From a virus (taxonomy: Duplodnaviria > Heunggongvirae > Uroviricota > Caudoviricetes), in IMG/VR virus record IMGVR_UViG_2648501437_000010, positions 1-30,031 of that record: DNA of 30,031 nt; one strand, 5' to 3'. Below the pieces are notes generated by a model that was given only the letters and a program-made list of their open reading frames with translations, searched no databases and was not told the origin of the DNA. Below are positions 1-19,638 of the stretch, one piece after another. A program made the position numbers and the translations under genes. Numbering within the stretch: position 1 is the first letter of the stretch; each line of letters opens with the position of its first letter.

Positions 1-31
1 GGTTTTTTACTGGTTGATACTGTTTTTGTCA
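1..31 (-). CDS. 5' end of a gene that runs off the window (N-terminus M-T-K-T-V-S-T-S-K-K)
   Basis: ATG at complement 29-31 preceded by GAGGTGA 8 nt upstream; lies 26 nt downstream of the TGA stop of the zinc-ribbon ORF. Only about 10 codons are visible. Confidence 0.3.
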
Positions 32-59
32 TGTGAGTCACCTCTGACTGAGAGTTTAC

Positions 60-434
60 TCACTTAGCCGCGTGTCCACTATTGCTGGGTAAGATCAGAT
101 CACCAGCGAAGCATTTACCGACGCCACTGGTCAGATTGAAATATACCTTCCAGTTGGAGCTGCCGCATACCGGACACTCCTTGATATTCACTTCACGACC
201 GCGAGTACTCACGCCTCCACGTCGATAAACGATACCTTCAGTGTCCAACCATTGTTCAAAATCTAATTCGGTAATTAGCTCTTTCAGCTCGCTCACGATA
301 ATTCCACTTTTAACAGGCAATATTGTGACCAACCTAAATGTTGATATAACATAAAGGCTCATGTGTTTTTCTTTTGTGGTTTGGCAAAAGAAAAGTTGTT
401 TCACCAATGAATCAAGCGTGGAGGTGTTCTCCAC
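60..434 (-). CDS. zinc-ribbon protein with a primase-type zinc-binding motif; start uncertain (GTG at 434 or ATG at 362)
   Basis: C-terminal CPVCGSS-x15-GKCF resembles the N-terminal zinc ribbon of T7-type primases (CxxCGSS...C). Sits immediately downstream of the helicase gene. Only three Cys are visible before the TGA stop at 60-62. Confidence 0.45.
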   Translation of the reverse strand: MENTSTLDSLVKQLFFCQTTKEKHMSLYVISTFRLVTILPVKSGIIVSELKELITELDFEQWLDTEGIVYRRGGVSTRGREVNIKECPVCGSSNWKVYFNLTSGVGKCFAGDLILPSNSGHAAK

Positions 435-446
435 GCTTATTTTTTA
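414..446 (+). terminator. 10-bp stem-loop (aagcgtggag / ctccacgctt, 5-nt loop) followed by a T6 tract; terminator-like only in the plus orientation
   Basis: Perfect inverted repeat 414-423 / 429-438 followed by ATTTTTTA. On the minus (coding) strand the same hairpin is preceded by A-run and not followed by a U-tract; it overlaps the helicase stop and the GTG of the next ORF. Confidence 0.35.
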
Positions 447-1784
447 GGTAACGTCTAAGATTCGCTCAATGAAGCGCATTTGTTCGAGGTTTTGTTTAAC
501 GCGAATGCTGATCCCTCCCTGCTGGTTACGCGAACCAGCAAAGTAGAGACGAGCCTCTCCTTTCGCTTCTTCTTCTTCGGTTTTGTTGATCGTTATTACC
601 AGGTCAGCAATACGTACTTTTTCGATGTTGTCGGCGGCGTGCATCATTGTGGCAACTTCTGACGCGCCACCTTCACGGTTTGTCTGCGATGCCGTGATTC
701 CAGCAACGTTATGCTTGTCATAAAGAGCACGTAAATCGGTGTAGATACTACGAATGTTGGCGCGATCATCACGAAGGTCATAACTGGCACGCATCAAATC
801 TGCGTAGTCGACAACAACCATGTCAGGCACCATGCCGTTGGCTTTCATGCTGTTAAGCATACGGTCCAGATCTGCCGGTGACATACTTCCTGACGGACGC
901 TCAACCACCCACAAACTACCAATCCCCTTCGTGGCTCCCAACTCTGCCAACTTACGATGAACCTCATCGCGCCGTTCCACCAACTTGGACATTTCTGTCT
1001 CCGACAATCTTGCATCAAAACGGTCGGATAAAATGGTGGTGTGAACCTCCAGCGAGAGATACAGAACATTGTAGCCAGCAAGCGTTGCGTTTATGGAAAA
1101 CTCACCCATTGCGGTCGATTTACCGGATTTAGCGAACCCCATGAAGAGCACCATTTCGCGCTTTGCCCAGCCTTTTTGGTACAGCAACCTATCGAGAAGA
1201 GGGAGTCCAGTTGTAATACTGTTTGGTACATACTCCTCTGAAGCCTCATATTCACGCGCTTTCAATCGCTCACTTGCGGAGGTGTAGTAGTCATAGATTC
1301 CGGTCGCTTCGTTCGATCCAATCTGCTGAACCTTGGCCATGATTGCCATCGCCCCCTGAAAGTCGCCTTTCTCTTTCAGTTCAGCAGCCTTTATCAGAGC
1401 ATCATCAAACGCTACACTTTTTGCGAAGGTTGATACCTGGTCAACCATGTACGAGGTATCGGACAATTTTTCTGCAAGAATGCGCTTAAACGCAGCAACA
1501 ACATCGGCGAATAGTTCCTCACGGATAGTCTTATCGCGTTTCGCACGCTTAAGCATATCCAGAATTGCAGATGAAGAGGGCGCGCTCTTGTACATACGGT
1601 AATAGCCCGAAACCATATTAACCAATATGGCATTGGCCGCATTGGCAAACTGGCTAGGCACAACCAGATCTCCCGCACGAGTAAGAAACTCGTGATCACG
1701 ACAAAAATATGCCGTCAGTCTGTTCTGGAAATCTTCATCAAACTCTTCGGACAGCCCGCGTCCTGTATGGCAAAGTTCGGTCAT
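444..1784 (-). CDS. DnaB-family replicative DNA helicase
   Basis: 446 aa; C-terminal RecA-like domain with Walker A GFAKSGKST and Walker B-like VVVDYADLM; N-terminal helical domain; ATG at 1784 with AAAGGAAAG RBS. Confidence 0.85.
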   Translation of the reverse strand: MTELCHTGRGLSEEFDEDFQNRLTAYFCRDHEFLTRAGDLVVPSQFANAANAILVNMVSGYYRMYKSAPSSSAILDMLKRAKRDKTIREELFADVVAAFKRILAEKLSDTSYMVDQVSTFAKSVAFDDALIKAAELKEKGDFQGAMAIMAKVQQIGSNEATGIYDYYTSASERLKAREYEASEEYVPNSITTGLPLLDRLLYQKGWAKREMVLFMGFAKSGKSTAMGEFSINATLAGYNVLYLSLEVHTTILSDRFDARLSETEMSKLVERRDEVHRKLAELGATKGIGSLWVVERPSGSMSPADLDRMLNSMKANGMVPDMVVVDYADLMRASYDLRDDRANIRSIYTDLRALYDKHNVAGITASQTNREGGASEVATMMHAADNIEKVRIADLVITINKTEEEEAKGEARLYFAGSRNQQGGISIRVKQNLEQMRFIERILDVT

Positions 1785-1827
1785 GTGCTTTCCTTTGTTT
1801 TTTAAACAAATTGTTTTCTAGTATTAG

Positions 1828-2568
1828 TTAATTAGATAGGGGATCAATAAACCGCCGTGCTTCTTCCAGTTCTTCTGGAAAGTGGGCGGAAATAAGGCGC
1901 TCTGGAACGATTTCCATTAGCCAGATAGCGGAGAAAATTGCGCGTATGCGCTTGCTGCGAGGGATGGTGCGCAAACGCTCCAGAATCCACTCAAAATAGC
2001 TTTCCTGAATCGGGTTGAACTGCATGTCTCCCATATGCTTAAAGCTAACCAGAGAGTCATCCAGACGGGTTGTTGCGCGTCTGGCTAATTTCTCTTCAAA
2101 TATCTCAATCAGTTCTGGCTGCCATAAATGCTGTGGGCGCGGCAGCTTGTCCCACAGCCGTCGTGCAGCTGCGGAAAGAACGGTGGAGATAAAGTAGTCG
2201 TATGAGCAGCAATAGCGGTCAGCAAACTGGCGTGCTTTCCATAGAGACGTTTTATTGGCAGTCGACAACTCCTGATAAGGCAGGCGTTTTAACCCGGTGG
2301 TGAACGGAGCTGTTTCAAAGTGTTCGCGACCGTGCGTCAGCATGATATTTGAGTACTGACGTTTGTATGCCTCCGTAAACAGACAGGTGGCCATAAGAGG
2401 ATGCATGTCGCGGTAATCAAACCACTTCGTCTCGAAGAGTTCAGCCTCATCTTTACAGCGCGACAAACCAATGTTTTCAGCGACCCACTTGTCCATAACA
2501 GCGGTATTCCACTCTGTCATGAAGTCGTACTGGTCGTTGTCGATGGTATCGAAAAAGATTTGGCTCAT
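1828..2568 (-). CDS. hypothetical protein, first gene of the helicase operon (possible replication accessory or loader; no NTPase motif seen)
   Basis: 246-aa ORF from ATG at 2568 with GGTGAG 4 nt upstream; 43-nt gap to the helicase start; motif site A lies 16 nt upstream. Confidence 0.55.
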   Translation of the reverse strand: MSQIFFDTIDNDQYDFMTEWNTAVMDKWVAENIGLSRCKDEAELFETKWFDYRDMHPLMATCLFTEAYKRQYSNIMLTHGREHFETAPFTTGLKRLPYQELSTANKTSLWKARQFADRYCCSYDYFISTVLSAAARRLWDKLPRPQHLWQPELIEIFEEKLARRATTRLDDSLVSFKHMGDMQFNPIQESYFEWILERLRTIPRSKRIRAIFSAIWLMEIVPERLISAHFPEELEEARRFIDPLSN

Positions 2569-2584
2569 GTGGCTCACCCGGCAG

Positions 2585-2600
2585 GTAGTTACTTACTTAT
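2585..2600 (-). promoter_or_regulatory. recurring 16-nt motif, site A (plus strand gtagtTACTTACTTAT)
   Basis: One of five near-identical intergenic 16-mers; here directly upstream of the RBS of the 1828-2568 gene. Confidence 0.4.
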
Positions 2601-2818
2601 CACAATGAGCGGATGATAGCGACTGGTGGCAGTTTTTGGAAGTGAAAACGGAAGGGAGTTGTTCTGGTGATGTCTTTTAAAAGACCTGCTTCCGTATATA
2701 TTTAATAAGTTACTTATTATTTATATACAGAAACAGGCTCCTAATGGATACCAAGAACAACATAATTTGACTCCAACCCCAGATGCTATGTCATTGACAG
2801 ATTTATCAAGGGAGATCA

Positions 2819-2827
2819 TGTTAGAAT
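2819..2827 (+). promoter_or_regulatory. candidate extended -10 promoter element (TGtTAGAAT) for the plus-strand gene
   Basis: TG-n-TAGAAT at 2819-2827 in the AT-rich divergent intergenic region; TTGACA at 2794-2799 is present but with a 22-nt spacer, so the -35 is doubtful. Confidence 0.3.
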
Positions 2828-2857
2828 CAGTGTTTTAGCCTCGTGGATATTGTCACC

Positions 2858-3916
2858 ATGCGCATGAATAGACTTCCAGGATATGGCCTTCCCGAACTGG
2901 CTTTTTGGCCTCAGCCTAAATATGAACGGAATAAATGGTCGATGTTCTGTCTGAAACTCCGTAATGATGGAACCCTTGCTTGGTATCGGCGATATGTTGA
3001 TCGTGGTATGCCAAACCACGCTTTTGATGACGACTACGATAACTATCCTGAAGCAAGAAAAGCGGCATTAGAGCTGAATAAAAACGTGAGCTTTGACATT
3101 GAAAAACTTCCTCTATCTATGTTTCAAAAGAAGTCATTGCGTTTGAAAGTTGACAAAGCACTCAAAGCCAAATCACGTCTCATGGATGAAGAGCATATAA
3201 TGCTCAACGAAGCAATTAAGGCACACGCCAACGATCCGCGAGTGACATTAAATGAGTTAATAATTAACCCAGATTACGAAACTTTGCGTCAACCCCTTTT
3301 TGACGTGCTAAGCGAGATGCCTTACTTACATTTTGTTTTTCTTCCCAAATTCCAAGTTTCACTTCAACTCGTTGCTCCTAACACTTGGGAATGTTCATAT
3401 AACAACAAAGCTAAGACAGCGAAGATCTGCTACCAAGAACGCATAGCCAGAGGTTTTGGTTTATCAGGTGCTGCACATTGGGGAAAAACAAAAGCGACTA
3501 TTCGCTCAATGCTTCTGCCGCGTGCTAACCGGTTACTGCAACTCGCCAGCGTAAAAAGAATGCTGGATGAAGCTCTCAGGAATGGGCAAAAGGTACTGGT
3601 TGTTGGCAACTTTGTTTTCTGGTTTGAGGACAAAAATCAGGTAGGTTGGAGTGTTAAAGTTGCTAGCGAAAGCGAAACCACCTCAAGAGGCAATACGCTC
3701 TGGAAAGAAGGAACTATCATTTCAAAAAATCACGGTCGAATTGTCGTGCTGCCGTATACAAAAGAAAACGGTAAACATGTAAAAGGTTATACCAAGAATG
3801 CCCCTAACGACGGCAACGCAATTCCGAGACATAAGGATGAGTATGTCGAGTTGCCCTTTGAAATTTTGGATGGTGACTTGATGTTCAGTCTGTTCGGTGA
3901 GCTTAACTACGAATAG
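2858..3916 (+). CDS. hypothetical protein, the only plus-strand gene in the window
   Basis: Long ORF (track 2843-3916 from GTG; first ATG at 2858, giving 352 aa); TAG stop at 3914-3916; convergent with the partition genes and followed by a hairpin. No motif I can assign. Confidence 0.55.
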   Translation: MRMNRLPGYGLPELAFWPQPKYERNKWSMFCLKLRNDGTLAWYRRYVDRGMPNHAFDDDYDNYPEARKAALELNKNVSFDIEKLPLSMFQKKSLRLKVDKALKAKSRLMDEEHIMLNEAIKAHANDPRVTLNELIINPDYETLRQPLFDVLSEMPYLHFVFLPKFQVSLQLVAPNTWECSYNNKAKTAKICYQERIARGFGLSGAAHWGKTKATIRSMLLPRANRLLQLASVKRMLDEALRNGQKVLVVGNFVFWFEDKNQVGWSVKVASESETTSRGNTLWKEGTIISKNHGRIVVLPYTKENGKHVKGYTKNAPNDGNAIPRHKDEYVELPFEILDGDLMFSLFGELNYE

Positions 3917-3936
3917 CTTTCATAGAACGAAATATT

Positions 3937-3968
3937 TCTAAGGCTGTCCAATGCAGACCAGCCTTAGA
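3937..3968. terminator. stem-loop between convergent genes (about 10-bp stem tctaaggctg / cagccttaga, 12-nt loop); candidate bidirectional terminator
   Basis: Inverted repeat lying between the plus-gene stop (3916) and the ParG-like gene stop (3977); flanks are A/T-rich but there is no clean U-tract. Confidence 0.4.
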
Positions 3969-3976
3969 GATTTATA

Positions 3977-4336
3977 TCAACCTTTCTTCATTAACTCGCG
4001 TTTAATTTCATCGGTTCGCATCGTGACATCGGCAGCGGTGATCGCCTCATTCAATTTCACGATGTCCTCGATTTCCTGCGGTGACTTCTCTGCCAGATGG
4101 AAAATGGCTGCTCGAATCACGTCAGAACGAGTGAACTTCTCGAAGCGAGGGATGAACTTCATCATCTCCAGCAGTTCGAAGTATTCGTCCTCCAGTGACA
4201 TTGTGCGGCTTTTAATTTTCTCTTTGCCACGAGTCGGGCGTCCCTGTGGTCTGACTGGTTGGCGCAAAGGAGTTGTGTTCTTAGCCGGTGCATCAGGCTC
4301 TTTGCGCTTTGCTAGGTCACCCATTTTCATGGACAT
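3977..4336 (-). CDS. small partition-protein candidate (ParG-like centromere-binding protein)
   Basis: 119 aa; basic, Pro/Arg/Lys-rich N-terminal tail followed by a short C-terminal folded region; ATG overlaps the parA stop (TAATG), implying translational coupling. Size and position fit a type Ib ParA partner. Confidence 0.5.
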   Translation of the reverse strand: MSMKMGDLAKRKEPDAPAKNTTPLRQPVRPQGRPTRGKEKIKSRTMSLEDEYFELLEMMKFIPRFEKFTRSDVIRAAIFHLAEKSPQEIEDIVKLNEAITAADVTMRTDEIKRELMKKG

Positions 4337-9857: not shown

Positions 9858-12800
9858 TTACACCTGTGCGACGTTATACCATGTGCCATTGATGTATTTT
9901 TGTATTGGCCTGAATACTGCTGGGTCATCACCATCAACAGCGCCAATAATGCCAAGCCCTGTAATTACATGACCTGATTTTTCATACATCACACCTTTTC
10001 GCATAGTCTGAACAACACGTGTACCCAGGCGAACATCTTTTACATAGCGTGAATCAAAATTCCCCCAGTTGTTGGGCTGTATCTGACCGTTAACAGAAAA
10101 TATTACCGAGTTATCTGTATTTCGCTGACTATAGAAATGCCAGCCTGAATCATCACCAAGCTCTGCAACAGTTGGTCTTGACGAATTTCCCCACAAGTTA
10201 AATGATGCATTACGGGCAGCGGTATTTGAGCTTGAAAGTGTGAATAACTTACTTTCCCCAGTCTGAATACCCTTTAATGATATTGCTGAACCATTTCTAA
10301 AGCGGAATACATGCACACCATTAGCATAAGCATCCAGCACCCCATCACCATTTTGTTTAAACCCGGTATCGTTATCTCCTAAAACTATTGAATTGCCACC
10401 CAGGGCATTAGCCGTTCCAATCCCCAGATTTCCGCTAAAAATGGCATTAATACCGAATATTGAGTGAGAACAATAAAACCCTCGCCCATTGTTAAAATCA
10501 AGAATAGCTTGCGCGTTCGTGCTTTCTGTCGCGGGATTAGTTGCTCCCCACTTATATGTTGTTTGACCGACGGTATAATCCTGAGTTGGAACAATAACCG
10601 TTAGCCCTTCTTCAGCAGAAACCCGCACAGGAAAAGCCCTGCCTTCAACGTAAAAAACGCTGCATACATCATCTTCTTTAAGGCTTGTTACAATGGAATG
10701 GATTGCGCGCTCATTAGTCTGATACGTCGAAAAATAACCTGCCGCATATGAACCACGATCAGTCCAGCCACCAGGCATTACCATTCCATTGAATTCGCAG
10801 TTATTCATTTCGTAATTACCACCGGCAGATGTGGTCGTTATAATCACTCTGGAAGCCAGCTCGCCAGTGCTGCCTGTGGAACGCCGGAAAATAACTGGAT
10901 ACCACTTTCCACCAACTGCATTAGACGGCGCATTAAATGCGTACTGCCGCATTCCTTTTTTCTTATCCACTTCGCCTTTGCTGTAAACATTAATGTTACT
11001 CAGGAAGCGATCTTTATCAGGAATATCCGCGCCGTTCTGGTTTTTTTGCAATGATCCAGCGGCTAATTCTACGGTTTGCTCAAGATTTAAATCTTCCGCC
11101 GTTAGCTCAATATTTTTAGAACCATCAAACGAGACGCCGTTGATAGTACATGCTGTCTGCAACTTGGTCGCTGTCGCTGCATTACCGGTTGTGTTCTGGT
11201 TACCAGCAATGTTTACACCCGGCAGGTTGATATCGGCAGAGCCATCAAACGCCACACCAGCAATTTTCCTTGCTGTCTGCAATTTTGTGGCGGTTGCGGC
11301 ATTACCAGTAGTGTTCTGATTACCAGTTGTATTCACACCAGGGATTGAATCCTTAGCGGTATATACCTGTGCCCACGCTGACCATGCTGCATCAGTGGTA
11401 TCTCTTCGGGAGCGAATGAAAACCGGCGCATGTGCACCGCTCGTACCACTCCAGCCAATAAGCAACTCACCCTCGCCAGCAGCACTCGCACCTTTCATGT
11501 GCAATACGTTGCCATACGTGGTCGGATAGCTATTGTTGTACGCCTCGTACATTTGAATGCCAGCAGTGCCTTGAGTAGAGCCGCTTAACGCCGTAACTCG
11601 GCCACGAGATACCAATGTATTAATGTTGATATCGCCTGAGCCATCAAACTTAACACCATTGATGTTTCTCGCTGTTTGCAACTTCGTAGCTGTTGAAGCA
11701 TTACCGTTCAAACTACCATTTATGCCACCAGTAACATTTAGTCCATTACCAATAGACACAACACCGCTAGTATTATTAATTGTAATCGGTCGCAAGCCGT
11801 TCCATGAACCTAACGTATCTCCTGATGCTGTTAGCATGAAATATGTGCTGCCGCCGTCATTACGGATAAAGAACCCAAAGCTACCGTAAGCAATGCGGAA
11901 ACCATTTGCATATTTTGAAACGATCTCACCAGAAGATGTCAAACCTCCAGATAATGTACCACCGGTAAGAGGTAATGCACCAACGTCAGATGCAGTTGGT
12001 TTGTTTTTCGTGTTATATACTCTTCGCCATCCTGGAGAATAATCTGTGCCATTAAATACATAGATAAACTCCGCATTAGTGAGAGCACCGGAAACACTTG
12101 TCGTTGTGGCCGTTGTTATGCGGATCGTATAATTATTTGAACTACTACCGTTATTAAATACTTCTATAACAGCTCCTGCCAATGGAATAACGCCACAACC
12201 AGTTTCACTATTTGGTATGGTTGCGCTATTGGCATAGGCCCACGCACATCGAGCAATCCATGCCTTTGTGTTAAAGGCTCCATTATTTTGCAATAACGTC
12301 ACTAACTGGGCTGTTGTTATTGCTCCGCCATTACTTCCTGTAGTTAACCAACCAGTAGGAGATGCCGGGCAACCTATATTTGCTGGCGACAAGGAAATAT
12401 TTGCCGAGCCGTCAAACGACACCCCATTGATAGTACGCGCAGTCTGCAACTTCGTAGCAGTAGCCGCATTACCTGTTGTATTCTGATTACCAGTCGTATT
12501 AACACCTGGCAAATTAATATTTGCAGTACCATCAAAGCTCACGCCGCCGATAGTTCTTGCCGTCTGTAGTTTTGTAGCAGTTGCGGCATTACCAGTGGTG
12601 TTCTGATTACCCGTAGTGTTTACACCTGGAAGATTAATATTGGCAGAACCGTCGAAACCAACTCCACCGATAGTTCTTGTCGTCTGTAATTTCGTTGCTG
12701 TACTTGCATTACCATTCAATGAACCAGTTAATCCGCCTGTAACAGACAACGGACCAGAAACTGTTCCTCCGGTTGTTGGCAGTGCTCCAATATCTGATGG

Positions 12801-14801
12801 CGTAGGTTTCTGATGTGAGCTATACATCGTATAAACAACACCATCGGTAACGCTGGCAGGCTTACTCGCTGAATATGTTGGCGATGTATAAATAGAAACT
12901 GACGCATTTGCAGTACAATCCCAGTGGACATTTACACTCGTCGCATAATTGCCAATCTCAACATAAATATCATATGTATCGCCGGATGTATTCACCCATG
13001 CAAAATTAGTAAATCCAACCGATGTCCTTCGCCATAACGCACCAGTAAGACCTTTTGGATTTCCATTTCCCGCACGAAGAACAAGTTCAGATATACCAGC
13101 CTGCATAGGGGAGTTAACATTATATCCAGCACCACCAATCAATGTGATGTAAACGATGGAACTCGCTTGTGGCATGGTAACCGTAGCCAGTTTGAACCAC
13201 CCAGCCCCGCCAGAGAAAGACATCGTTACTGAATTTAAAGTACCAATATCTTTCGGCGTTAATGTTATATCCGCAGTCAGTGCTTTTCCGTTAATTTTTC
13301 GGTTAGATGGCACCCTGCTATTCGCATTGTCATTGGCTGCTTTAACTGCTTTTGGCGTTGCGGCCAGCGATTCACTGGTGCTATCGACAGCACTGCTAAG
13401 TTTCACAACACCTTTAGTTGTAAGGCTTGCGTCTTCCATCGCAACTGCACCGGCAATCTCTTCAGCACGATCAGCAGCAGCTTCCGCACGGGTCGCAGCG
13501 GATTCAGCAGCAGTTTTGCTCTGAGATGCAGCCGTCGCACTGCCTGCCGCCTCTGTTGCTTTCGTGGATGCCGTTGAAGCACTGCCCTTCGCTTCTGATG
13601 CCTGCTTGGTCGCCTCATCTTTTGAAGCGGATGCTGAGGAGGCTGATGCAGACGCAGAACTTGCAGATTCAGCAGCTGCCGCCTTAGAGGAAGCAGCATT
13701 GTCTTCTGAAGTCTTTGCATTTGTTTCAGAGGTTTTTGCTGCCGATGCTGAATTTTTAGCAGCTGTAGCCTGACTCGTCGCCTCTGTCGCTTTTGTGGTA
13801 GCTGTTGTCGCTGATGACAATGCGCTATCCGCAGATTTTCCTGCCGCTGTTGCACTTGATGAAGCACTATCCGCACTTGCTGAGGCTGCGCTTGCTGACG
13901 CTTCTGCCGCAGATTTCGAACTGTTTGCAGACGATGCACTCTGTTCGGCTGCCGTTTCAGATGCTTTTGCGTTTGCCTCTGACGTTTTTGCTGCCTTAGA
14001 CGAATTTGCAGCTTCTGTTGCCGATGATGCTGCCGCGTTTGCGCTCGATGAAGCGTTAGTCTCTGATGCTTTGGCTGCATCCTTAGATGCAGAGGCACTG
14101 GACGCAGATGTTGCTGCCTCCGATGCTTTGGCCGACGCTACAGATGCTGATTCTGCTGCCGCTTCTTTTGCGGCTTGTGCGTTCGTTTCAGATTTTTTCG
14201 CAGCAGTTGCGCTCGCACTTGCAGCACTTTGTGAGGATGCCGCAGCGGATGCACTTTGAGACGCTTGAGAGGCTTTTTCTCCAGCGGTATTGGCGCTTTC
14301 TGCTGCTGCGGCAGCACTGGCCGCCGCCTCACGAGCTTTGTCGCCAGCAGCATCAATCGCGTCAGTGTTATTTTTATACCACTCAACGTTTTCGTTGTGC
14401 TCGTTGACGATCTGCATTAGCGGCTTAACGGTCACTTCTGTACCGTCTTCACGCTCGATTGTCACCTCATCCAGAGCAGTCAACCAACTGCGCATGGACT
14501 TGGAATCAGCCGACATACGCGACATTAGTGCAGTAAAGCGCGCGCTAAACTGTGTTAAGTCGCCTTCATAGGTCGTAATGATTCGGCACGGAACTTCAGA
14601 CTGAGTTTCGCCGGTATAAGGTTCTGAGAGAACAATGTTCGTATCACTGGTTACGCGCTTGATCTCATACAGCTTATTGTCGGGGCCAATGACGATCATC
14701 CCCGGCAACACACCATTAGCTGTTACGTTCCAGGCTGTCCCTGCCCCAACCAGAGTATTGCTGCCCTGTGTAAATGTGATAGTACCTTCCCTGTACCACA
14801 T
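9858..14801 (-). CDS. stf: side tail fibre protein (lambda Stf / P2 gpH-like mosaic)
   Basis: 1647 aa; long Ala/Ser/Thr-rich region with ...TKGVVKLSSAVDSTSESLAATPKAVKAAN as in lambda Stf; multiple GNAATATKLQTAR-type phage tail fibre repeats; C-terminus ...FRPIQKYINGTWYNVAQV of the Tfa-dependent fibre family; AAGGAG RBS. Confidence 0.85.
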   Translation of the reverse strand: MWYREGTITFTQGSNTLVGAGTAWNVTANGVLPGMIVIGPDNKLYEIKRVTSDTNIVLSEPYTGETQSEVPCRIITTYEGDLTQFSARFTALMSRMSADSKSMRSWLTALDEVTIEREDGTEVTVKPLMQIVNEHNENVEWYKNNTDAIDAAGDKAREAAASAAAAAESANTAGEKASQASQSASAAASSQSAASASATAAKKSETNAQAAKEAAAESASVASAKASEAATSASSASASKDAAKASETNASSSANAAASSATEAANSSKAAKTSEANAKASETAAEQSASSANSSKSAAEASASAASASADSASSSATAAGKSADSALSSATTATTKATEATSQATAAKNSASAAKTSETNAKTSEDNAASSKAAAAESASSASASASSASASKDEATKQASEAKGSASTASTKATEAAGSATAASQSKTAAESAATRAEAAADRAEEIAGAVAMEDASLTTKGVVKLSSAVDSTSESLAATPKAVKAANDNANSRVPSNRKINGKALTADITLTPKDIGTLNSVTMSFSGGAGWFKLATVTMPQASSIVYITLIGGAGYNVNSPMQAGISELVLRAGNGNPKGLTGALWRRTSVGFTNFAWVNTSGDTYDIYVEIGNYATSVNVHWDCTANASVSIYTSPTYSASKPASVTDGVVYTMYSSHQKPTPSDIGALPTTGGTVSGPLSVTGGLTGSLNGNASTATKLQTTRTIGGVGFDGSANINLPGVNTTGNQNTTGNAATATKLQTARTIGGVSFDGTANINLPGVNTTGNQNTTGNAATATKLQTARTINGVSFDGSANISLSPANIGCPASPTGWLTTGSNGGAITTAQLVTLLQNNGAFNTKAWIARCAWAYANSATIPNSETGCGVIPLAGAVIEVFNNGSSSNNYTIRITTATTTSVSGALTNAEFIYVFNGTDYSPGWRRVYNTKNKPTASDVGALPLTGGTLSGGLTSSGEIVSKYANGFRIAYGSFGFFIRNDGGSTYFMLTASGDTLGSWNGLRPITINNTSGVVSIGNGLNVTGGINGSLNGNASTATKLQTARNINGVKFDGSGDININTLVSRGRVTALSGSTQGTAGIQMYEAYNNSYPTTYGNVLHMKGASAAGEGELLIGWSGTSGAHAPVFIRSRRDTTDAAWSAWAQVYTAKDSIPGVNTTGNQNTTGNAATATKLQTARKIAGVAFDGSADINLPGVNIAGNQNTTGNAATATKLQTACTINGVSFDGSKNIELTAEDLNLEQTVELAAGSLQKNQNGADIPDKDRFLSNINVYSKGEVDKKKGMRQYAFNAPSNAVGGKWYPVIFRRSTGSTGELASRVIITTTSAGGNYEMNNCEFNGMVMPGGWTDRGSYAAGYFSTYQTNERAIHSIVTSLKEDDVCSVFYVEGRAFPVRVSAEEGLTVIVPTQDYTVGQTTYKWGATNPATESTNAQAILDFNNGRGFYCSHSIFGINAIFSGNLGIGTANALGGNSIVLGDNDTGFKQNGDGVLDAYANGVHVFRFRNGSAISLKGIQTGESKLFTLSSSNTAARNASFNLWGNSSRPTVAELGDDSGWHFYSQRNTDNSVIFSVNGQIQPNNWGNFDSRYVKDVRLGTRVVQTMRKGVMYEKSGHVITGLGIIGAVDGDDPAVFRPIQKYINGTWYNVAQV
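11090..11350 (-). repeat. in-frame tandem copies of the phage tail fibre repeat inside stf
   Basis: Near-identical DNA blocks encoding GNQNTTGNAATATKLQTAR...FDGS...INLPGVN; this also explains the antisense plus-strand ORFs with ...CNFVAVAALPVVF. Confidence 0.6.
12395..12720 (-). repeat. three tandem copies (about 117 bp each) of the phage tail fibre repeat inside stf
   Basis: Repeated ...accagtagtgttctgattacc...ggcag...ccatcaaa... units visible in the DNA; encoded peptide NTTGNQNTTGNAATATKLQTARTIGGVSFDG x3. Confidence 0.65.
13450..14350 (-). repeat. low-complexity GC-rich region encoding the Ala/Ser/Thr-rich segment of stf
   Basis: Continuous gcngcn/tcngan codon periodicity; produces long spurious ORFs in several alternative frames on both strands. 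Confidence 0.65.
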
Positions 14802-14893: not shown

Positions 14894-17800
14894 TTACAGA
14901 AGGCCAATTCTTACTCGTAGGACGTTGTTATCGTCATAAACGTCAATCCGCTGACCATTTATGACCAGTCGCCCATTGCCGCCGCTATTACCGTTGATCT
15001 CAAGCGTTCCATTTTTGCCGAATCGCCATCCAGATCTACCGCTAACAAAATTGGTAGATTGCAGATCGCCTACTTTTGCATTGGTGATTGTGCCATCCTT
15101 GATATACGCTCCATTCATATAGGCGATACTGTTTTCGATAACAAATGGCGTTGTGATCTTCCCGTTAACAGAGTTGACCAAACCAAACCTGTCCGCCTGA
15201 ACCAAAAACTGAGATAGCCCAGTGGTGTCAATACCAAGCGCAATACCGGCAACATACTTCTGCCCTCCGCTCGTTGAAGTCTCCATTTTCAACGTCCACG
15301 CGGTTGACACTTTTTTGTTGGTATCAGCAATAGCTGTTGCCTGCTGTTGAATTGTCGCGGTATTTCCATCCACCTCTGCTTTCAGAGTATCGATTCGCCC
15401 ACTCAGAGCATTATCTGCCTGCGTTCTCGCTGTCGTTTCAGTTGTTACCGCCGCGGAAATGTTGGCTGCCGTTTGAGACTCTAAGTTTGTGATTTGAGTC
15501 GCCAATGCAGCATCTTGCTCTGTACGCGTTTTCGTTTCGGTTGCTACAGCCGCTTTAATATCCTCTTTGTATTGAGAGGTCAGCTTGGTGATCTGAGACG
15601 ACAACGCCGAGTCAGCATCAGTTCGAGCCTGCGTTTCAACTGCAACGGCCGCACTAATATCTTTCGCTGTCTGTGCTTTTAAACTTGAAACCTCTTTTGT
15701 TAAAGCGGTATCACCATCAGCACGAGCCGTTGTTTCTCTGGCAAGAGATGCCTCGAGATCATTAGCTTTTGCTGTAAGAGACGAAATCTGAGTGGACAAT
15801 GCACTATCGGCATCAGTCCTTGCCTTTGTCTCTACAGCAACCGCTGCGGCAATATCAGTTCCGGTTTGTGCTCGCAGGCTGTTAATTTCTCGTGAGAGCG
15901 CCTGGTCAGCACTTGCTCTGGCCTCCTGCTCCTGAGTGATGGCAGCGGATATATCACCGTCAACCTTTGACTGAAGCTGGTTTATTTGTTTGGCTAACGC
16001 AGAGTCCCCGCTTGCTCGGGCCTCCTGCTCACTACGTATTGCAGCAGAAATATCATCATCAACCTTTGCCTGAAGTTGGGTGATCTGGCTTGCCAGAGCC
16101 GAATCTTCCGTTGCTCGGGCTTCTTGCTCTTCCTTAATAGCTGCGACGATATCGTTGCTTACTTTCGACTCAAGCTGAGTGATCTGTGTCGTCAGAGCTT
16201 CATCGGCAGATGTACGAGCCTCCTGCTCTGTACTAATCGCCGCGCTGATATCTCCTTCAAACTTAGATTGCAGCTGAGTGACACGCTTTGCCAACGCTTC
16301 ATCGCCATCGGCACGAGCGGTGGACTCTTCCAGAATACTGGCCTTAATGTCTTCGCCAATTTCTACGCGAATTTCCTCAACCTTCGTGGCCATTGCAGAC
16401 ATATCATCAGCAAAGGTTTTCTGTGTTGTTGCGATCTTCGCGTTATTGACCATCTGCTTGTGCTGGTCTTCATCTTGACGAAGAGCCAGGTCAATATTTG
16501 TTTTGGCCAAAGCCTCAATGTTCGTAGTCAGTTCTGCACTGGCACGATCGACCTCTGCAACCGTCTTTTTCATTTCTTCAACGGCAGCGGAGCTTTCCTC
16601 TACCGTTGACTGCAACACTTCCAGTTGTTTAGCGTTTGCAGCATCACCTTCAACACGAGCCTCGCTTTCCTTAGCAATAAGAGCCGCCGCTTCATCTCTT
16701 GCAGCCTTTATTGCCTCGACTGTATTAGCGAGAGCTTTATCGTGTTCAGATACGGTATTTTCGATTTCAACAATTGCAGCATCAGTAGCATCAATTTTTT
16801 CAAACGCTTCATTGACCTTGTCGATCGTTGCCGAAACCTCACCTTTAAGCTCGGTTTGTGCGTTCTCCAAAGCATCGCTACGCTCGTTGAATTTTATTTC
16901 AAAATCCGCGAGGTTATCGCTGAACTGCTTATCTAATTCAGCTATATCTTCCTTAACGTCGTTTACCGCCCCCTCCAAAGATTCGACGCTCTGGTTGATA
17001 TGCTCATTTAACTCGTCAACGGCTTCTTGAGAGGCTTTGCTGTTGATGTCCTCAAGCAGAGCCTGACCAAGCTCGGAAGATGTAATTTTGCCAGTCAGGA
17101 ACGACAGTACATCGCGAGTTGTCGCCTCTGTACCCAAGTTTGAGTTCGGAGGACTTAACATACCTCGCTTGTTCGATGCTCGAACCCAGTAATACCACGT
17201 TTCGCTATCCCCAAGACCAGCATGTGTAAAGGTGGTGCTTGCAGACTCTGCGATCAGTTTCGCCGTATCCAGATTATTGGTCTGGGACGCGTAAACATTA
17301 ATGTGATCAAGGTCTACCGAATCTGGATTAACCCAATTCAGTATCACATTACGATAGTCTCCAACGGCCGTTAATGACGTTGGGGCATCTGGCGGTGTCA
17401 TTGTGCCCAGCACCTGATAAACGGTACTGATAATCTCTGTTTTTTTACCGTTGAATGAAACCGCATACAGCTGGAAGTCGTAGCGTCCATTCTCCGCAAC
17501 ATTAACGATTTCGTATTGCTCTTCGGTTACACGCGCCGATTGCCAGTTCGATACATTGTTTTCATCAGAACGTCGCCAACTGATCCAATACTCTGGAGAT
17601 TTCCCTTCCCATGTTGCAGTCAGTTTTACTGACAGGTTGCCAGGGCTTGAGAGATAAGTCCCTTCGGTGATTTGCAAATTAGACGGCTTGGAGTAAGTCG
17701 GGTCCAATACCGTCGTATTTTGCGGGATAAGCGTTGCACCATTGTCGATCGCCTCATATTTAGACGGATTGTTCTCAACAGCGGTGATGTCAAAGCTACC

Positions 17801-19621
17801 CGGCGTTTCCCCCTGCGCGATGTTAACGATGCGAACGCGCATAGGTTCGAGGTCTGGTTCTGTAATAGTCCAGACGCCGTTCAAAACAGGCGTTTCAGCC
17901 GAAGACAGGGCTTTTGAAAACGTAACTTTTGTTATATTTTCGCCAGTTTCAAGAACATCGCGTTCAACGATTTTGCCTTCCTGATTCAGTATTCGAATAA
18001 AGCAGCCGCCTTTGGCTAACGACACAGGCGCATCGAGTGTGACGCTGTTTTTGGTAAACGCCACAATTCGACCTGAGTTACGTTTGCCTGCGCGATATTT
18101 GTTCTGAATCAGAACGGTTTCACCAGGCATCAGAAATGACGCGTCTAAGCCGGCAGTAAATGTAATTACATCCGACTCCATTCTGGCGGTATATAAAAGC
18201 CATAAACCAACTCGGTGAGCCTGCCCTCGGCTTGTACAGCCAAATGCTACGACTTCTGTCTTACGCTCACCATAACGGCGCATTGCGTCCTGATCTTCAA
18301 CGTACTCGATGTTTTGCTTATAACCGTCCTCCTTGTTGTTGTAGGTTACGAGCGCAACGGATGGGCGATCTTTACGCGCAGAACCTTTATAGGTAAACAA
18401 TCCATCTTTGACGTTAGAGTTGGTAAACATCATTACCGGATCTGATGGGCTATCCTGCATGATGTTAACCATCCCACCAGCCCAAAACACCATGCCGCGG
18501 AATGCTCCAGCAATATCCTGAATTAGCCGGTATGCGTCCTGTCGACTGGTGATCTGCGTATTGATTGCAAAGCGTTTCTCTTTGCCACCAAAGCCATCAT
18601 CGACCTCTTCGTCACAATATCGACCAATCTGGTACAACTGGCCAAGGTCAATCATAGATTCCGACACATACTGACCAAGGCCATATCGAGCATTGGTCAG
18701 CAAATCAAAGAGAATCCACGCGGGGTTCGAAGAAGACAACAGCTTAAAAGTACCATCCCATACCCCAGCGTAAGTGTTACTTGACTCGTTATAGTTTGAA
18801 GGTACTCGAATTTTTAGGCCACGCACCAGATAAGAGCGAGATGGCATGGTGCTGCCGAATTGCTCAGAGTTTACCTTCAATCCAACCAAAACAGAGTTTG
18901 GATAGTTCATCGGTGTATCGACAATTTCCCCGATTGAATCCACCCATGTATCGTTATAGAGATACTGGCTACTGTTATCATCGGTAATACGGACTACACG
19001 AACCTTGTATGCGCGTCCAGGCTTAGGCAGCTTCAGCTCGTAGCTACGGTAATAAACGCCGGTCTTCTTTGCTGTTAGCTTAATGCCAACGCTTTTTTCA
19101 CCTTCCGCGACCACATCTACAAATGTTGAGTCGCCATTTGCTATCTGGAACTTGTACTCAACAGTCGTACCGTTCGTGTCACCAGTTTTTTTATCTATGC
19201 TTCGCAAAGAAGGAAACTTCATGATGACACGAACCCGATCAGCTTCATCGTTATCGATTGAAACCGTTACATAATGTGTTTTTTTTAACTGGATATTGAC
19301 GGATTTAGGCGTTTCAACGAAATCAAAGCCAGACATTGGAGTCTGGTCTTGTGAACCGTCGCGAAAATCCCATGTGATTCCGCTGAAGTTGGAGGAACCG
19401 TCTTCATTTACAATCGGCAGATCGTCGATAAAAATAGATCTTGCGCCATTTACTAAGCCGCCAATTACCCCTTCCCCAAGAAGATCGAGGATAGCGGCCA
19501 TTGCACGAGAATTTACGGTATCGTCGGCTTCAACCGGTGTACGGCTGGAGCTTTTGCTGCTTTTTTTACCACCCGCACCGGCAATAAACAGCGGTAGCTT
19601 TTTCTTCTTGAACTGTTCCAT
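14894..19621 (-). CDS. J: host specificity / central tail fibre protein (lambda J family) with an inserted coiled-coil repeat region
   Basis: About 1576 aa from ATG at 19621 (AAGGA RBS); blocks such as AFGCTSRGQAHRVGLWLLYT and ...QKYVAGIALG...SQFLVQADRFGLVN match lambda J as I recall it; the track ORF begins at a TTG two codons upstream. Confidence 0.9.
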   Translation of the reverse strand: MEQFKKKKLPLFIAGAGGKKSSKSSSRTPVEADDTVNSRAMAAILDLLGEGVIGGLVNGARSIFIDDLPIVNEDGSSNFSGITWDFRDGSQDQTPMSGFDFVETPKSVNIQLKKTHYVTVSIDNDEADRVRVIMKFPSLRSIDKKTGDTNGTTVEYKFQIANGDSTFVDVVAEGEKSVGIKLTAKKTGVYYRSYELKLPKPGRAYKVRVVRITDDNSSQYLYNDTWVDSIGEIVDTPMNYPNSVLVGLKVNSEQFGSTMPSRSYLVRGLKIRVPSNYNESSNTYAGVWDGTFKLLSSSNPAWILFDLLTNARYGLGQYVSESMIDLGQLYQIGRYCDEEVDDGFGGKEKRFAINTQITSRQDAYRLIQDIAGAFRGMVFWAGGMVNIMQDSPSDPVMMFTNSNVKDGLFTYKGSARKDRPSVALVTYNNKEDGYKQNIEYVEDQDAMRRYGERKTEVVAFGCTSRGQAHRVGLWLLYTARMESDVITFTAGLDASFLMPGETVLIQNKYRAGKRNSGRIVAFTKNSVTLDAPVSLAKGGCFIRILNQEGKIVERDVLETGENITKVTFSKALSSAETPVLNGVWTITEPDLEPMRVRIVNIAQGETPGSFDITAVENNPSKYEAIDNGATLIPQNTTVLDPTYSKPSNLQITEGTYLSSPGNLSVKLTATWEGKSPEYWISWRRSDENNVSNWQSARVTEEQYEIVNVAENGRYDFQLYAVSFNGKKTEIISTVYQVLGTMTPPDAPTSLTAVGDYRNVILNWVNPDSVDLDHINVYASQTNNLDTAKLIAESASTTFTHAGLGDSETWYYWVRASNKRGMLSPPNSNLGTEATTRDVLSFLTGKITSSELGQALLEDINSKASQEAVDELNEHINQSVESLEGAVNDVKEDIAELDKQFSDNLADFEIKFNERSDALENAQTELKGEVSATIDKVNEAFEKIDATDAAIVEIENTVSEHDKALANTVEAIKAARDEAAALIAKESEARVEGDAANAKQLEVLQSTVEESSAAVEEMKKTVAEVDRASAELTTNIEALAKTNIDLALRQDEDQHKQMVNNAKIATTQKTFADDMSAMATKVEEIRVEIGEDIKASILEESTARADGDEALAKRVTQLQSKFEGDISAAISTEQEARTSADEALTTQITQLESKVSNDIVAAIKEEQEARATEDSALASQITQLQAKVDDDISAAIRSEQEARASGDSALAKQINQLQSKVDGDISAAITQEQEARASADQALSREINSLRAQTGTDIAAAVAVETKARTDADSALSTQISSLTAKANDLEASLARETTARADGDTALTKEVSSLKAQTAKDISAAVAVETQARTDADSALSSQITKLTSQYKEDIKAAVATETKTRTEQDAALATQITNLESQTAANISAAVTTETTARTQADNALSGRIDTLKAEVDGNTATIQQQATAIADTNKKVSTAWTLKMETSTSGGQKYVAGIALGIDTTGLSQFLVQADRFGLVNSVNGKITTPFVIENSIAYMNGAYIKDGTITNAKVGDLQSTNFVSGRSGWRFGKNGTLEINGNSGGNGRLVINGQRIDVYDDNNVLRVRIGLL
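15330..16370 (-). repeat. about 12 tandem 87-bp (29-codon) in-frame repeats inside J encoding a heptad-like coiled coil
   Basis: Repeated peptide unit DISAAIxxEQEARAxxDxALxxQIxQLQSKV; repeated DNA units visible (e.g. gcctcctgctc...gatatc...aacctttg...); explains the antisense ORFs on the plus strand at 15494-17030. Confidence 0.65.
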
Positions 19622-19638
19622 GTTCAAAAAATCCTTGT

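Follow-up and report, generated by a model that had tools for sequence, protein, structure and literature searches.

Ten 33-residue units in the predicted helical shaft of a J-family central tail fibre

What is a tandem repeat of regular protein units doing in the middle of a phage central tail fibre gene, and is the DNA that encodes it as unstable as such a repeat might lead one to expect? The question is raised by the J gene in a window of 30,031 nucleotides (IMG/VR virus record IMGVR_UViG_2648501437_000010), this window being the whole stretch of DNA that was analysed. The reading preferred here, to which a probability of roughly 0.6 is attached, is that the array forms the distal 330 residues of a shaft of about 590 residues in what would be the trimeric central fibre of an SSU5-like phage-plasmid, that its units turn over slowly and that the shaft is probably metastable.

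The J gene starts with an ATG at 19621 and its stop codon occupies 14894-14896 according to the translated ORF (Table 1). Its DNA is 99.3% identical to that of the Escherichia phage Cyrano gene annotated as 'tail host specificity protein J', and the order of annotated genes at the Cyrano locus (TMP, M, L, K, I, J, tail fibre) is the same in SSU5 and has the M-L-K-I-J neighbourhood of lambda. In phmmer comparisons with PDB sequences the hub and FNIII region matches the F2 pyocin fibre 25vf_A (E 9.5e-155) and the T1-type chain 9l9p_S (E 6.6e-131), both over query residues ~18-860, as well as lambda J 8iyk_J (E 2.3e-124, query 19-861). Pfam matches are to FNIII-A_GpJ (1.5e-29), Phage-tail_3 (7e-34) and fn3 (2e-5, with 25.1 bits against a cut-off of 25 bits). 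By its hub, FNIII and Phage_Tail_Tip domains, and by gene order, the gene is classed on sequence grounds as a member of the lambda J / TipJ family.

Both regions that flank the shaft are well conserved, with 90-97% identity among SSU5-like relatives for the hub and FNIII region and 92-96% identity to relatives for the C-terminal domain. Alignments of the latter cover lambda J 839-971 and the C-terminal ends of 9l9p_S, 25vf_A and 9ze4_N, and of the 120 homologues listed 117 have 156 residues after the array, the exceptions being two records named as partial and the deletion allele P0006. The J protein ends 16 residues past the PF09327 match, and comparison with Pfam and PDB sequences revealed no aligned counterpart of the C-terminal Ig-like receptor-binding domain of lambda gpJ (~aa 972-1132). 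As lambda residues 3-837 and 839-971 align to query residues 19-861 and 1419-1547 respectively, the shaft is placed where lambda has its alpha-helical shaft, and the Pfam and PDB alignments agree with the original prediction in putting the array between lambda J-like N-terminal domains and a C-terminal region.

Table 1. Features of the J locus, in coordinates of the window
Feature	Position	Strand	Residues and remarks
J / TipJ-family central tail fibre gene	14894..19621	(-)	1575 aa; ORF and translation
Hub and FNIII domains	17108..19621	(-)	aa 1-838; homologous to lambda J 3-837 (phmmer vs PDB)
Upstream, non-periodic part of shaft	16352..17080	(-)	aa 848-1090
Isolated degenerate unit copy, upstream of array	16595..16693	(-)	aa 977-1009, EAAALIAKESEARVEGDAANAKQLEVLQSTVEE; unit HMM
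Array of 10 tandem in-frame units of 33 aa / 99 bp	15365..16351	(-)	aa 1091-1419; unit 6 has 32 aa
Units 1-5 (+ strand coordinates)	16253-16351, 16154-16252, 16055-16153, 15956-16054, 15857-15955		
Units 6-10 (+ strand coordinates)	15761-15856, 15662-15760, 15563-15661, 15464-15562, 15365-15463		
Units 2-5, 'EQEAR' subtype	15857..16252	(-)	most alike of the array
Units 6-9, 'ET(K/Q/T)AR' subtype	15464..15856	(-)	unit 7 divergent
C-terminal 156 aa, connector and Phage_Tail_Tip (PF09327)	14897..15364	(-)	Pfam E 1.4e-41, aa 1425-1559
Side tail fibre gene downstream of J (context, outside array)	9858..14801	(-)	1647 aa

A tandem in-frame repeat does lie in J where the original prediction had located it, but with a different measure: the period is 33 residues (99 bp) and not 29 residues (87 bp), and there are ten clear units instead of about twelve. 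Self-identity of the protein peaks at a lag of 33 (0.47), then at 66 and 99, and does not rise above 0.22 at lags other than multiples of 33, and self-identity of the DNA peaks at a lag of 99 (0.52). TRF also reports a period of 99, but only 2.2 copies of it (76% match, 15912-16129), inside units 2-5. DNA-based repeat finders therefore understate an array of this type, for which protein autocorrelation and a unit HMM are needed; chance can by no means account for the repeat at the protein level, and at the DNA level it is weak. Its consensus, DISAAIxxETxARAxADxALxxQITxLxSK, with A4, E9, R13, D17, A19, L20 and L27 invariant, is essentially the one proposed earlier. The profile made from the units matches each of its ten source units with E values of 1e-15 to 5e-20, a comparison that is circular, and the same HMM recognizes the isolated degenerate unit upstream (14 bits, E 1.5e-5), which is present at the same place in relatives. 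What looks like a degenerate tail past unit 10 is already part of the C-terminal domain. The matrix of identities between units shows no multi-unit higher-order repeat, only the two loose subtypes of units 2-5 and 6-9. The 33-residue unit has no Pfam family, and sub-threshold coiled-coil-like Pfam matches to it (SF-assemblin and others) were rejected as compositional.

That the array reflects chance similarity or an error of assembly can be set aside as extremely improbable. Against it stand the disparity in self-identity between lag 33 and other lags, the 4-10 tandem units that the unit profile finds in independent homologues, the 100% identity of the J protein to a database cluster with 1980 members, and an array of equal length in dozens of complete plasmids.

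Copy number varies between isolates, as had been anticipated. Close relatives have 4, 5, 6, 7, 8, 9 or 10 units, and one allele carries a unit duplication (range 4 to 11). The J of SSU5, Cyrano, CMS-2020a and PhiR41_1 is the same gene as that of the window, with 5 units in SSU5, 9 in PhiR41_1 and 10 in Cyrano and both CMS-2020a records; other E. coli J alleles have 4, 6, 7 or 8 units, and the Klebsiella relatives have a J of 2201 residues with a shaft in which only degenerate unit matches are found. Since unit number differs among related elements, fibre length presumably differs too. No paper describing variable unit numbers in the J genes of SSU5-like elements was found, and the electron microscopy text of the Cyrano paper gives a tail length and no fibre length. 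Five in-register indels of one or two units (99 bp, 198 bp) leave hybrid units, with microhomology of 10, 3, 7 and 11 nt at four of the five junctions. Four indels are known in the allele lineage of the window (L008, L009, L010 and L011), and their hybrid units map to units 2-5. One deletion of 354 bp is in frame and out of register.

Unit-sized indels with hybrid units, together with the spread of unit numbers from 4 to 10 across relatives, might be taken to favor an array that is hypermutable, in which the similarity of the unit DNA would lead to frequent unequal crossing-over and to mixed fibre lengths in the manner of a contingency locus. This is close to what the original prediction had envisaged in calling the units recombination-prone, but the DNA does not bear it out. 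Identity between units averages 52% and reaches at most 66%, with a longest in-register exact run of 12 nt, and within units 2-5 the pairwise values are 52-66% with runs of 6-12 nt. Efficient RecA-dependent exchange usually needs roughly 20-30 bp, and the runs shared by the units are shorter than this. Codon identity at shared residues is 0.345 compared with 0.344 expected from codon usage; synonymous codons are thus randomised between units, from which it follows that there has been no recent homogenisation. Low mean identity, short exact runs and randomised codons together mean that the array DNA is not prone to recombination. As sample estimates, drawn from the matches listed among 166 E. 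coli and 164 PLSDB matches, the length of the array in the 97-99% identical allele lineage differs in two of 54 sampled plasmids from E. coli complete genomes and in none of 33 sampled full-length PLSDB plasmids, the 10 units being kept in 85 of the 87. Hypermutability is thereby largely refuted and carries very little probability. The original prediction had named two findings that would count against it, and they go separate ways here: the units are indeed too diverged, whereas homologues do not all have an equal repeat number. A striking protein repeat need not mean an unstable DNA repeat, and in this array the copies are saturated with synonymous change, with an array that holds stable over hundreds of plasmids.

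With the preferred reading of slow turnover, the units stem from ancient duplications, and nothing but selection for the pattern of the protein keeps them alike. Unit number changes slowly and in two ways, one being rare in-register deletion or duplication at microhomologies of 3-11 nt, mostly within units 2-5, and the other being recombination between diverged alleles.

The proposal that the array is a long helix agrees with single-sequence AF2 prediction, in which a helix extends over aa 1081-1440 (mean pLDDT 63) with one short break at aa 1300-1303, inside unit 7, and with a hydrophobic period of 3.65 residues. Upstream, helices are predicted for aa 848-988 and 995-1099 with a break at aa 989-994 (mean pLDDT 79.5), so that the predicted helical shaft comprises ~590 residues, aa 848-1440, with two short breaks, each of which adjoins a Gly. 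These were single-chain runs of modest confidence (mean pLDDT 63 and 80) that are silent on trimer packing and on a beta form, and for the C-terminal domain the pLDDT of the model is below 50. The upstream part (aa 848-1090) shows no 33-residue self-identity, has a hydrophobic period of 3.56 and is 61-70% identical to relatives. With nine core positions and a period of 3.65, the 33-residue unit would behave as three hendecads that include the invariant triad E9-R13-D17. The rise of a helix is ~0.148 nm per residue. Should the shaft be a coiled coil, a unit would lengthen it by ~4.9 nm (33 x ~0.148 nm), and the conserved distal beta-prism domain would be held some tens of nanometres under the tail tip.

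Long helical shafts of this kind are already known from F-type pyocins and phage T1, and that of lambda is short. Lambda gpJ (8iyk, 8xcg) has homologous hub, FNIII and Phage_Tail_Tip domains, but its shaft is of ~50 residues (809-861) compared to the ~590 of J. The F-type pyocin fibre (PA0641 / PyoF10; 25vf; F7) has the same order of hub, FNIII, long helical shaft and distal beta-prism as J, and is also without the lambda-type receptor-binding domain, the absence of which makes J resemble the F-pyocin and T1 fibres, and not that of lambda, in this respect. The C-terminal 618 residues of J match 25vf_A with an E value of 5.7e-25 (residues 285-590 of that C-terminal query), and the unit profile matches three chains only in the PDB, all of them J-like fibres. 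One of these matches is to F2 pyocin 1033-1062, a stretch within the shaft (residues 907-1084) whose solved structure is a three-stranded coiled coil (bioRxiv 10.64898/2026.02.24.707460; PMC13455828). The F7 pyocin chain is absent from the PDB matches of J. In contrast to the pyocin shaft of ~165-180 residues with degenerate units, two-thirds of the ~590-residue J shaft is the regular 33-residue array with its period of 3.65, and since the F2 shaft has been reported to consist mostly of heptads (bioRxiv 10.64898/2026.02.24.707460), details of the packing may differ. There is also the distinction that an F-type pyocin is a tailocin, whereas J belongs to a phage-plasmid. The pyocin has distal adhesins (PA0642 / PyoF11, PyoF12).

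The similarity of the T1-type chain 9l9p_S ('Putative tail fiber protein', 1172 aa) to J covers the last unit plus the distal domain (E 1.9e-29). The chain carries 33-residue units, two of which are near-identical (…DDIQASLTDIREVIATETEALSREIDQLKAQIG…), but has only ~3-4 of them and so a far shorter shaft than J. From its equal length of 1172 residues this chain would be the T1 central fibre protein gp33, whose AF3-predicted fibre of ~370 Å could not be resolved.

The source of the energy with which non-contractile tails open their tip and get through the outer membrane is only beginning to be understood, and a metastable helical shaft in the central fibre has been proposed for this role. A conserved pattern, SxSxxMxxLxS, in which acidic M is combined with Arg at i+/-4, has been tied to switching in the F7 pyocin (He et al. 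2026, PMC12874032). In the 329 residues of the J array the pattern is found 15 times forward and 11 times in reverse, compared with ~2.4 each in 2000 shuffles (maxima 7 and 8), though the pattern is loosely defined and overlaps any Ala/Leu-rich coiled coil of such periodicity, and the shuffles keep composition only. It keeps the register of the repeat in each of the 10 units, and Arg stands at i+/-4 from its acidic M positions, in agreement with the description by He et al. (PMC12874032). By homology with pyocin and lambda, contact with the receptor would cause the coiled coil to refold to beta-prism from the distal domain onwards, so opening the tail tip, and unit number would set the reach plus the size of the refolding element. 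A role of the shaft as a metastable 'spring' is plausible on this analysis.

The shaft could instead be a passive spacer, namely a stable coiled-coil ruler, and maybe a docking platform for side fibres, that gives reach through O-antigen or capsule with no large refolding. This accords with a predicted helix that is long and has the periodicity of a coiled coil, and with a unit number that changes from lineage to lineage between two conserved flanks. F-type pyocin side fibres dock on a kink in the shaft (PMC13455828; bioRxiv 10.64898/2026.02.24.707460), and the two Gly-adjacent breaks predicted in J may be compared with it. Furthermore, He et al. report no equally extensive switch in lambda or T5 (PMC12874032). 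On the other hand, the in-register SxSxxMxxLxS pattern and the invariant E9, R13 and D17 correspond to features tied to F7 switching, the homology of J with the pyocin fibre extends over both shaft and distal domain, and even the short alpha-helical shaft of lambda gpJ, between FNIII-2 and prism, turns in part to beta-sheet on binding its receptor LamB (PMC11101478). A purely passive shaft is accordingly judged possible, though doubtful. As to scale, the only fold switches on experimental record are that of the F7 pyocin (163 residues) and a slight one in lambda (PMC12874032), and a switch of 330-590 residues would exceed anything observed several-fold, a point against a fold switch in J.

Going beyond the preferred reading of a slowly changing and probably metastable shaft, it may be suggested, tentatively and as something rather unlikely, that in the allelic series of 4 to 11 modules each 33-residue module is one coiled-coil-to-beta-prism 'spring' increment, with their number setting both reach and energy or stroke. 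If so, the shaft would have three to four times the length of the sole switch observed so far, and the series would permit a dose-response test of the fold-switch model for the way in which non-contractile tails breach the envelope. A phage-plasmid family that is very common in E. coli, Shigella and Salmonella, and often carries resistance genes, has in any case a shaft of countable 33-residue modules, and its natural alleles, which differ only in the number of these (4 to 11) between conserved flanks, are material for testing shaft length against reach, host range and ejection.

At 14894-19627 the DNA shares 99.3% identity with the gene that Escherichia phage Cyrano carries for its "tail host specificity protein J"; Cyrano is pLF82 of E. 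coli LF82, an SSU5-like phage-plasmid. The tape measure, M, L, K and I genes come before J, and a large side tail fibre gene comes after it. Lambda J residues 3-837 align to residues 19-861 of the product and lambda residues 839-971 to residues 1419-1547, so that some 557 residues occupy the place of lambda's short alpha-helical shaft, which lies between FNIII-2 and the beta-sheet prism (PMC11101478). In contrast to lambda J, the protein stops directly after the prism domain and is without lambda's receptor-binding domain. A Pfam search of J gave no match between residues 830 and 1420 and no model for the repeat unit found there.

Features of the J gene and the adjacent side tail fibre gene
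Feature	Protein residues	Window positions	Strand	Remark
J gene	1575 aa	ATG 19621, stop 14894-14896	minus	
FNIII-A_GpJ	J 104-238			Pfam
Phage-tail_3	J 360-523			Pfam
fn3	J 747-826			Pfam
Phage_Tail_Tip (PF09327)	J 1425-1559			Pfam
Repeat array	J 1091-1419	15365-16351	minus	ten units, rows of 33
Side tail fibre	1647 aa	9858-14801	minus	
40-aa unit, two tandem copies	side fibre 725-805	12442-12714	minus	TRF 120-bp array, 78% match
40-aa unit, two additional copies	side fibre 1155-1240	~11080-11340	minus	

The tandem repeat in J is real, with protein self-identity of 0.47, 0.38 and 0.30 at lags of 33, 66 and 99, and DNA self-identity of 0.52 at lag 99. Its period is thus 33 residues (99 bp) and not the 29 residues (87 bp) of the original prediction, and there are ten units rather than about twelve; the predicted 1041-bp span is 10.5 times 99 bp, which explains the miscount. 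Nine units are of 33 residues and unit 6 is of 32, with A4, E9, R13, D17, A19, L20 and L27 invariant. A profile of the ten finds each of them with E values of 1e-15 to 5e-20, though circularly as it was made from them, and one further isolated degenerate unit at residues 977-1009.

With the array and distal domain as query, 3308 cluster representatives were matched with E values no worse than 1e-3, the proteins running to as many as 4233 residues. In the best 150 of them a single protein has as many as 26 copies of the unit, most often spaced at 32 residues (593 cases), less often at 33 (98), 36 (92) and 39 (33). Each of these spacings can be made up of sevens and elevens, so that the 33-residue unit represents one form of a shaft repeat that is widespread.

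The long helical stretch originally proposed is borne out, at modest confidence, by single-sequence AF2 prediction: a helix of some 590 residues, from 848 to 1440, broken only at 989-994 and 1300-1303, for a single chain and so uninformative on packing. The period at which the hydrophobic moment is highest is 3.65 residues for the array (33/9, hendecad-like) and 3.56 upstream of it. Searched against the PDB, the C-terminal 618 residues matched 9l9p_S (1172 aa; E 1.9e-29), the F2-pyocin fibre 25vf_A (E 5.7e-25) and 9ze4_N, and these three chains were the only ones matched by the unit profile. 9l9p_S has the length of phage T1 gp33 and, we infer, is that protein. One unit-profile match, F2 residues 1033-1062, is within the solved shaft, a three-stranded coiled coil with side fibres attached (bioRxiv 10.64898/2026.02.24.707460; PMC13455828). 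The element belongs to a known kind, that of the alpha-helical shafts in J-like central fibres. Both predicted helix breaks (window ~16640-16657 and ~15713-15724) are at (E/D)GD motifs; in F-type pyocins side fibres dock at a Gly kink in the shaft (PMC13455828).

On cell contact the 163-residue shaft of F7 pyocin is reported to turn from a coiled coil into a beta-prism, opening the tip, and it has a conserved SxSxxMxxLxS pattern whose acidic M positions pair with an Arg four residues off (He et al., PMC12874032). The array has 15 forward and 11 reverse occurrences of this pattern, against ~2.4 each in composition-preserving shuffles (maxima 7 and 8). Their positions are fixed across all units (reverse 4-14, forward 19-29), with a forward occurrence at 12-22 in half of them, and the invariant E9-R13-D17 triad is consistent with the acid-Arg rule. 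Lambda's short shaft partially converts to beta-sheet upon LamB binding (PMC11101478). Motif register, triad and the lambda precedent together make it reasonable to infer that the array shaft would undergo a fold switch.

At the DNA level the units are dissimilar. Pairwise nucleotide identity averages 52% (39-66%), the longest exact in-register run between any two is 12 nt, and where amino acids are shared the codon is shared in 34.5% of cases, against 34.4% expected from the gene's codon usage, so synonymous sites are randomised. Because of this divergence TRF reports just 2.2 copies (76%) in the array. The unit duplications are old, with no recent homogenisation, and the suggestion that similarity between units makes the DNA recombination-prone is not upheld.

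The companion suggestion that copy number varies does hold, as relatives carry 4-10 units. The unit profile finds five in SSU5, nine in PhiR41_1, ten each in Cyrano and both CMS-2020a records, and no more than degenerate matches in Klebsiella relatives with a 2201-residue J. In the Klebsiella phages vB_KpnS_p4727 and vB_Kpn_1825-KPC53 these matches are weak and irregular; their J is 85% identical to the window's in the hub, only ~30% in the shaft and ~40% in the distal domain. Arrays of 4, 5, 6, 7, 8, 9 or 10 units occur among the best 120 database homologues (81-100% identity across the aligned part), five being commonest by cluster representatives, and the two ten-unit clusters have the largest memberships (1980 and 1290 sequences); the window's allele is already abundant in databases. 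In 117 of the 120 the array is followed by exactly 156 residues; the deletion allele P0006 and two records that are partial depart from this. Across alleles the first and last units are orthologous, and it is the number of internal "EQEAR" and "ETxAR" subtypes that differs. Divergence within J is greatest in the shaft, at 61-70% identity to relatives, with 90-97% in the hub and 92-96% in the distal domain. No published description was found of the shaft's regular modular build, nor of the series of alleles with 4 to 11 units that SSU5-like phage-plasmids carry.

Individual changes can be traced in compared alleles. L008 has lost 99 bp to give a unit 3/4 hybrid, with 10 nt of microhomology at the junction, and L009 has independently lost 99 bp to give a 4/5 hybrid (3 nt, within a longer imperfect match). 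The eight-unit L010 has a 2/(3/4) hybrid with no exact junction match against the window; its likely parent is an L008-type allele. L011, from Shigella sonnei (GCA_023794135.1 contig, 1-4138), has gained 99 bp in the order 3, 4/3 hybrid, 4 (7 nt). All four events in the lineage of the window's allele lie within units 2-5, the most similar ones. L011 also has an in-frame, out-of-register 354-bp deletion (1 nt), which runs from the end of unit 7 through unit 10 and takes away the beginning of the distal connector as well; the element carrying it may be a prophage-plasmid in decay. PhiR41_1 differs from CMS-2020a SCU-175 by a 99-bp deletion (11 nt) and 1 mismatch in 1035 nt. Exchange between diverged alleles reshuffles units too, as mosaics such as P0005 show.

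The J C-terminus is present in 180 of 5426 complete E. coli genomes, plasmid-borne every time. At 97% identity or more, 52 of 54 records in the E. coli sample have the ten-unit length and two have lost one unit; all 33 full-length records sampled from PLSDB have the ten-unit length. Over epidemiological time, then, the array is stable, and over evolutionary time it varies. About 60 Yersinia pestis plasmids (among them PLSDB matches H110-H121, 94-137 kb) match only query positions 1421-1695, at ~83% identity, which is the upstream non-periodic shaft; the array and distal domain are outside the match.

The side tail fibre has, especially at 13360-14380, an Ala/Ser-rich stretch of ~340 residues (124 Ala, 79 Ser) that clearly repeats every 7 residues and shows up in TRF as 21-bp rows (13460-13509 and 13699-13739); this part is probably another coiled-coil or low-complexity shaft. 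The fibre also contains copies of a 40-residue unit, GVNTTGNQNTTGNAATATKLQTARTIGGVSFDGSANINLP, that in contrast to those of the J array are close enough in DNA for TRF detection. Its first 1198 residues match the Cyrano fibre (L001 1880-5905) at 85%. The C-terminal ~450 residues (window 9858-11200) are unlike Cyrano's and longer, the whole being 1647 against 1341 residues. An exchange relative to Cyrano has thus taken place at the presumed receptor-binding end, despite J genes that are 99.3% identical.
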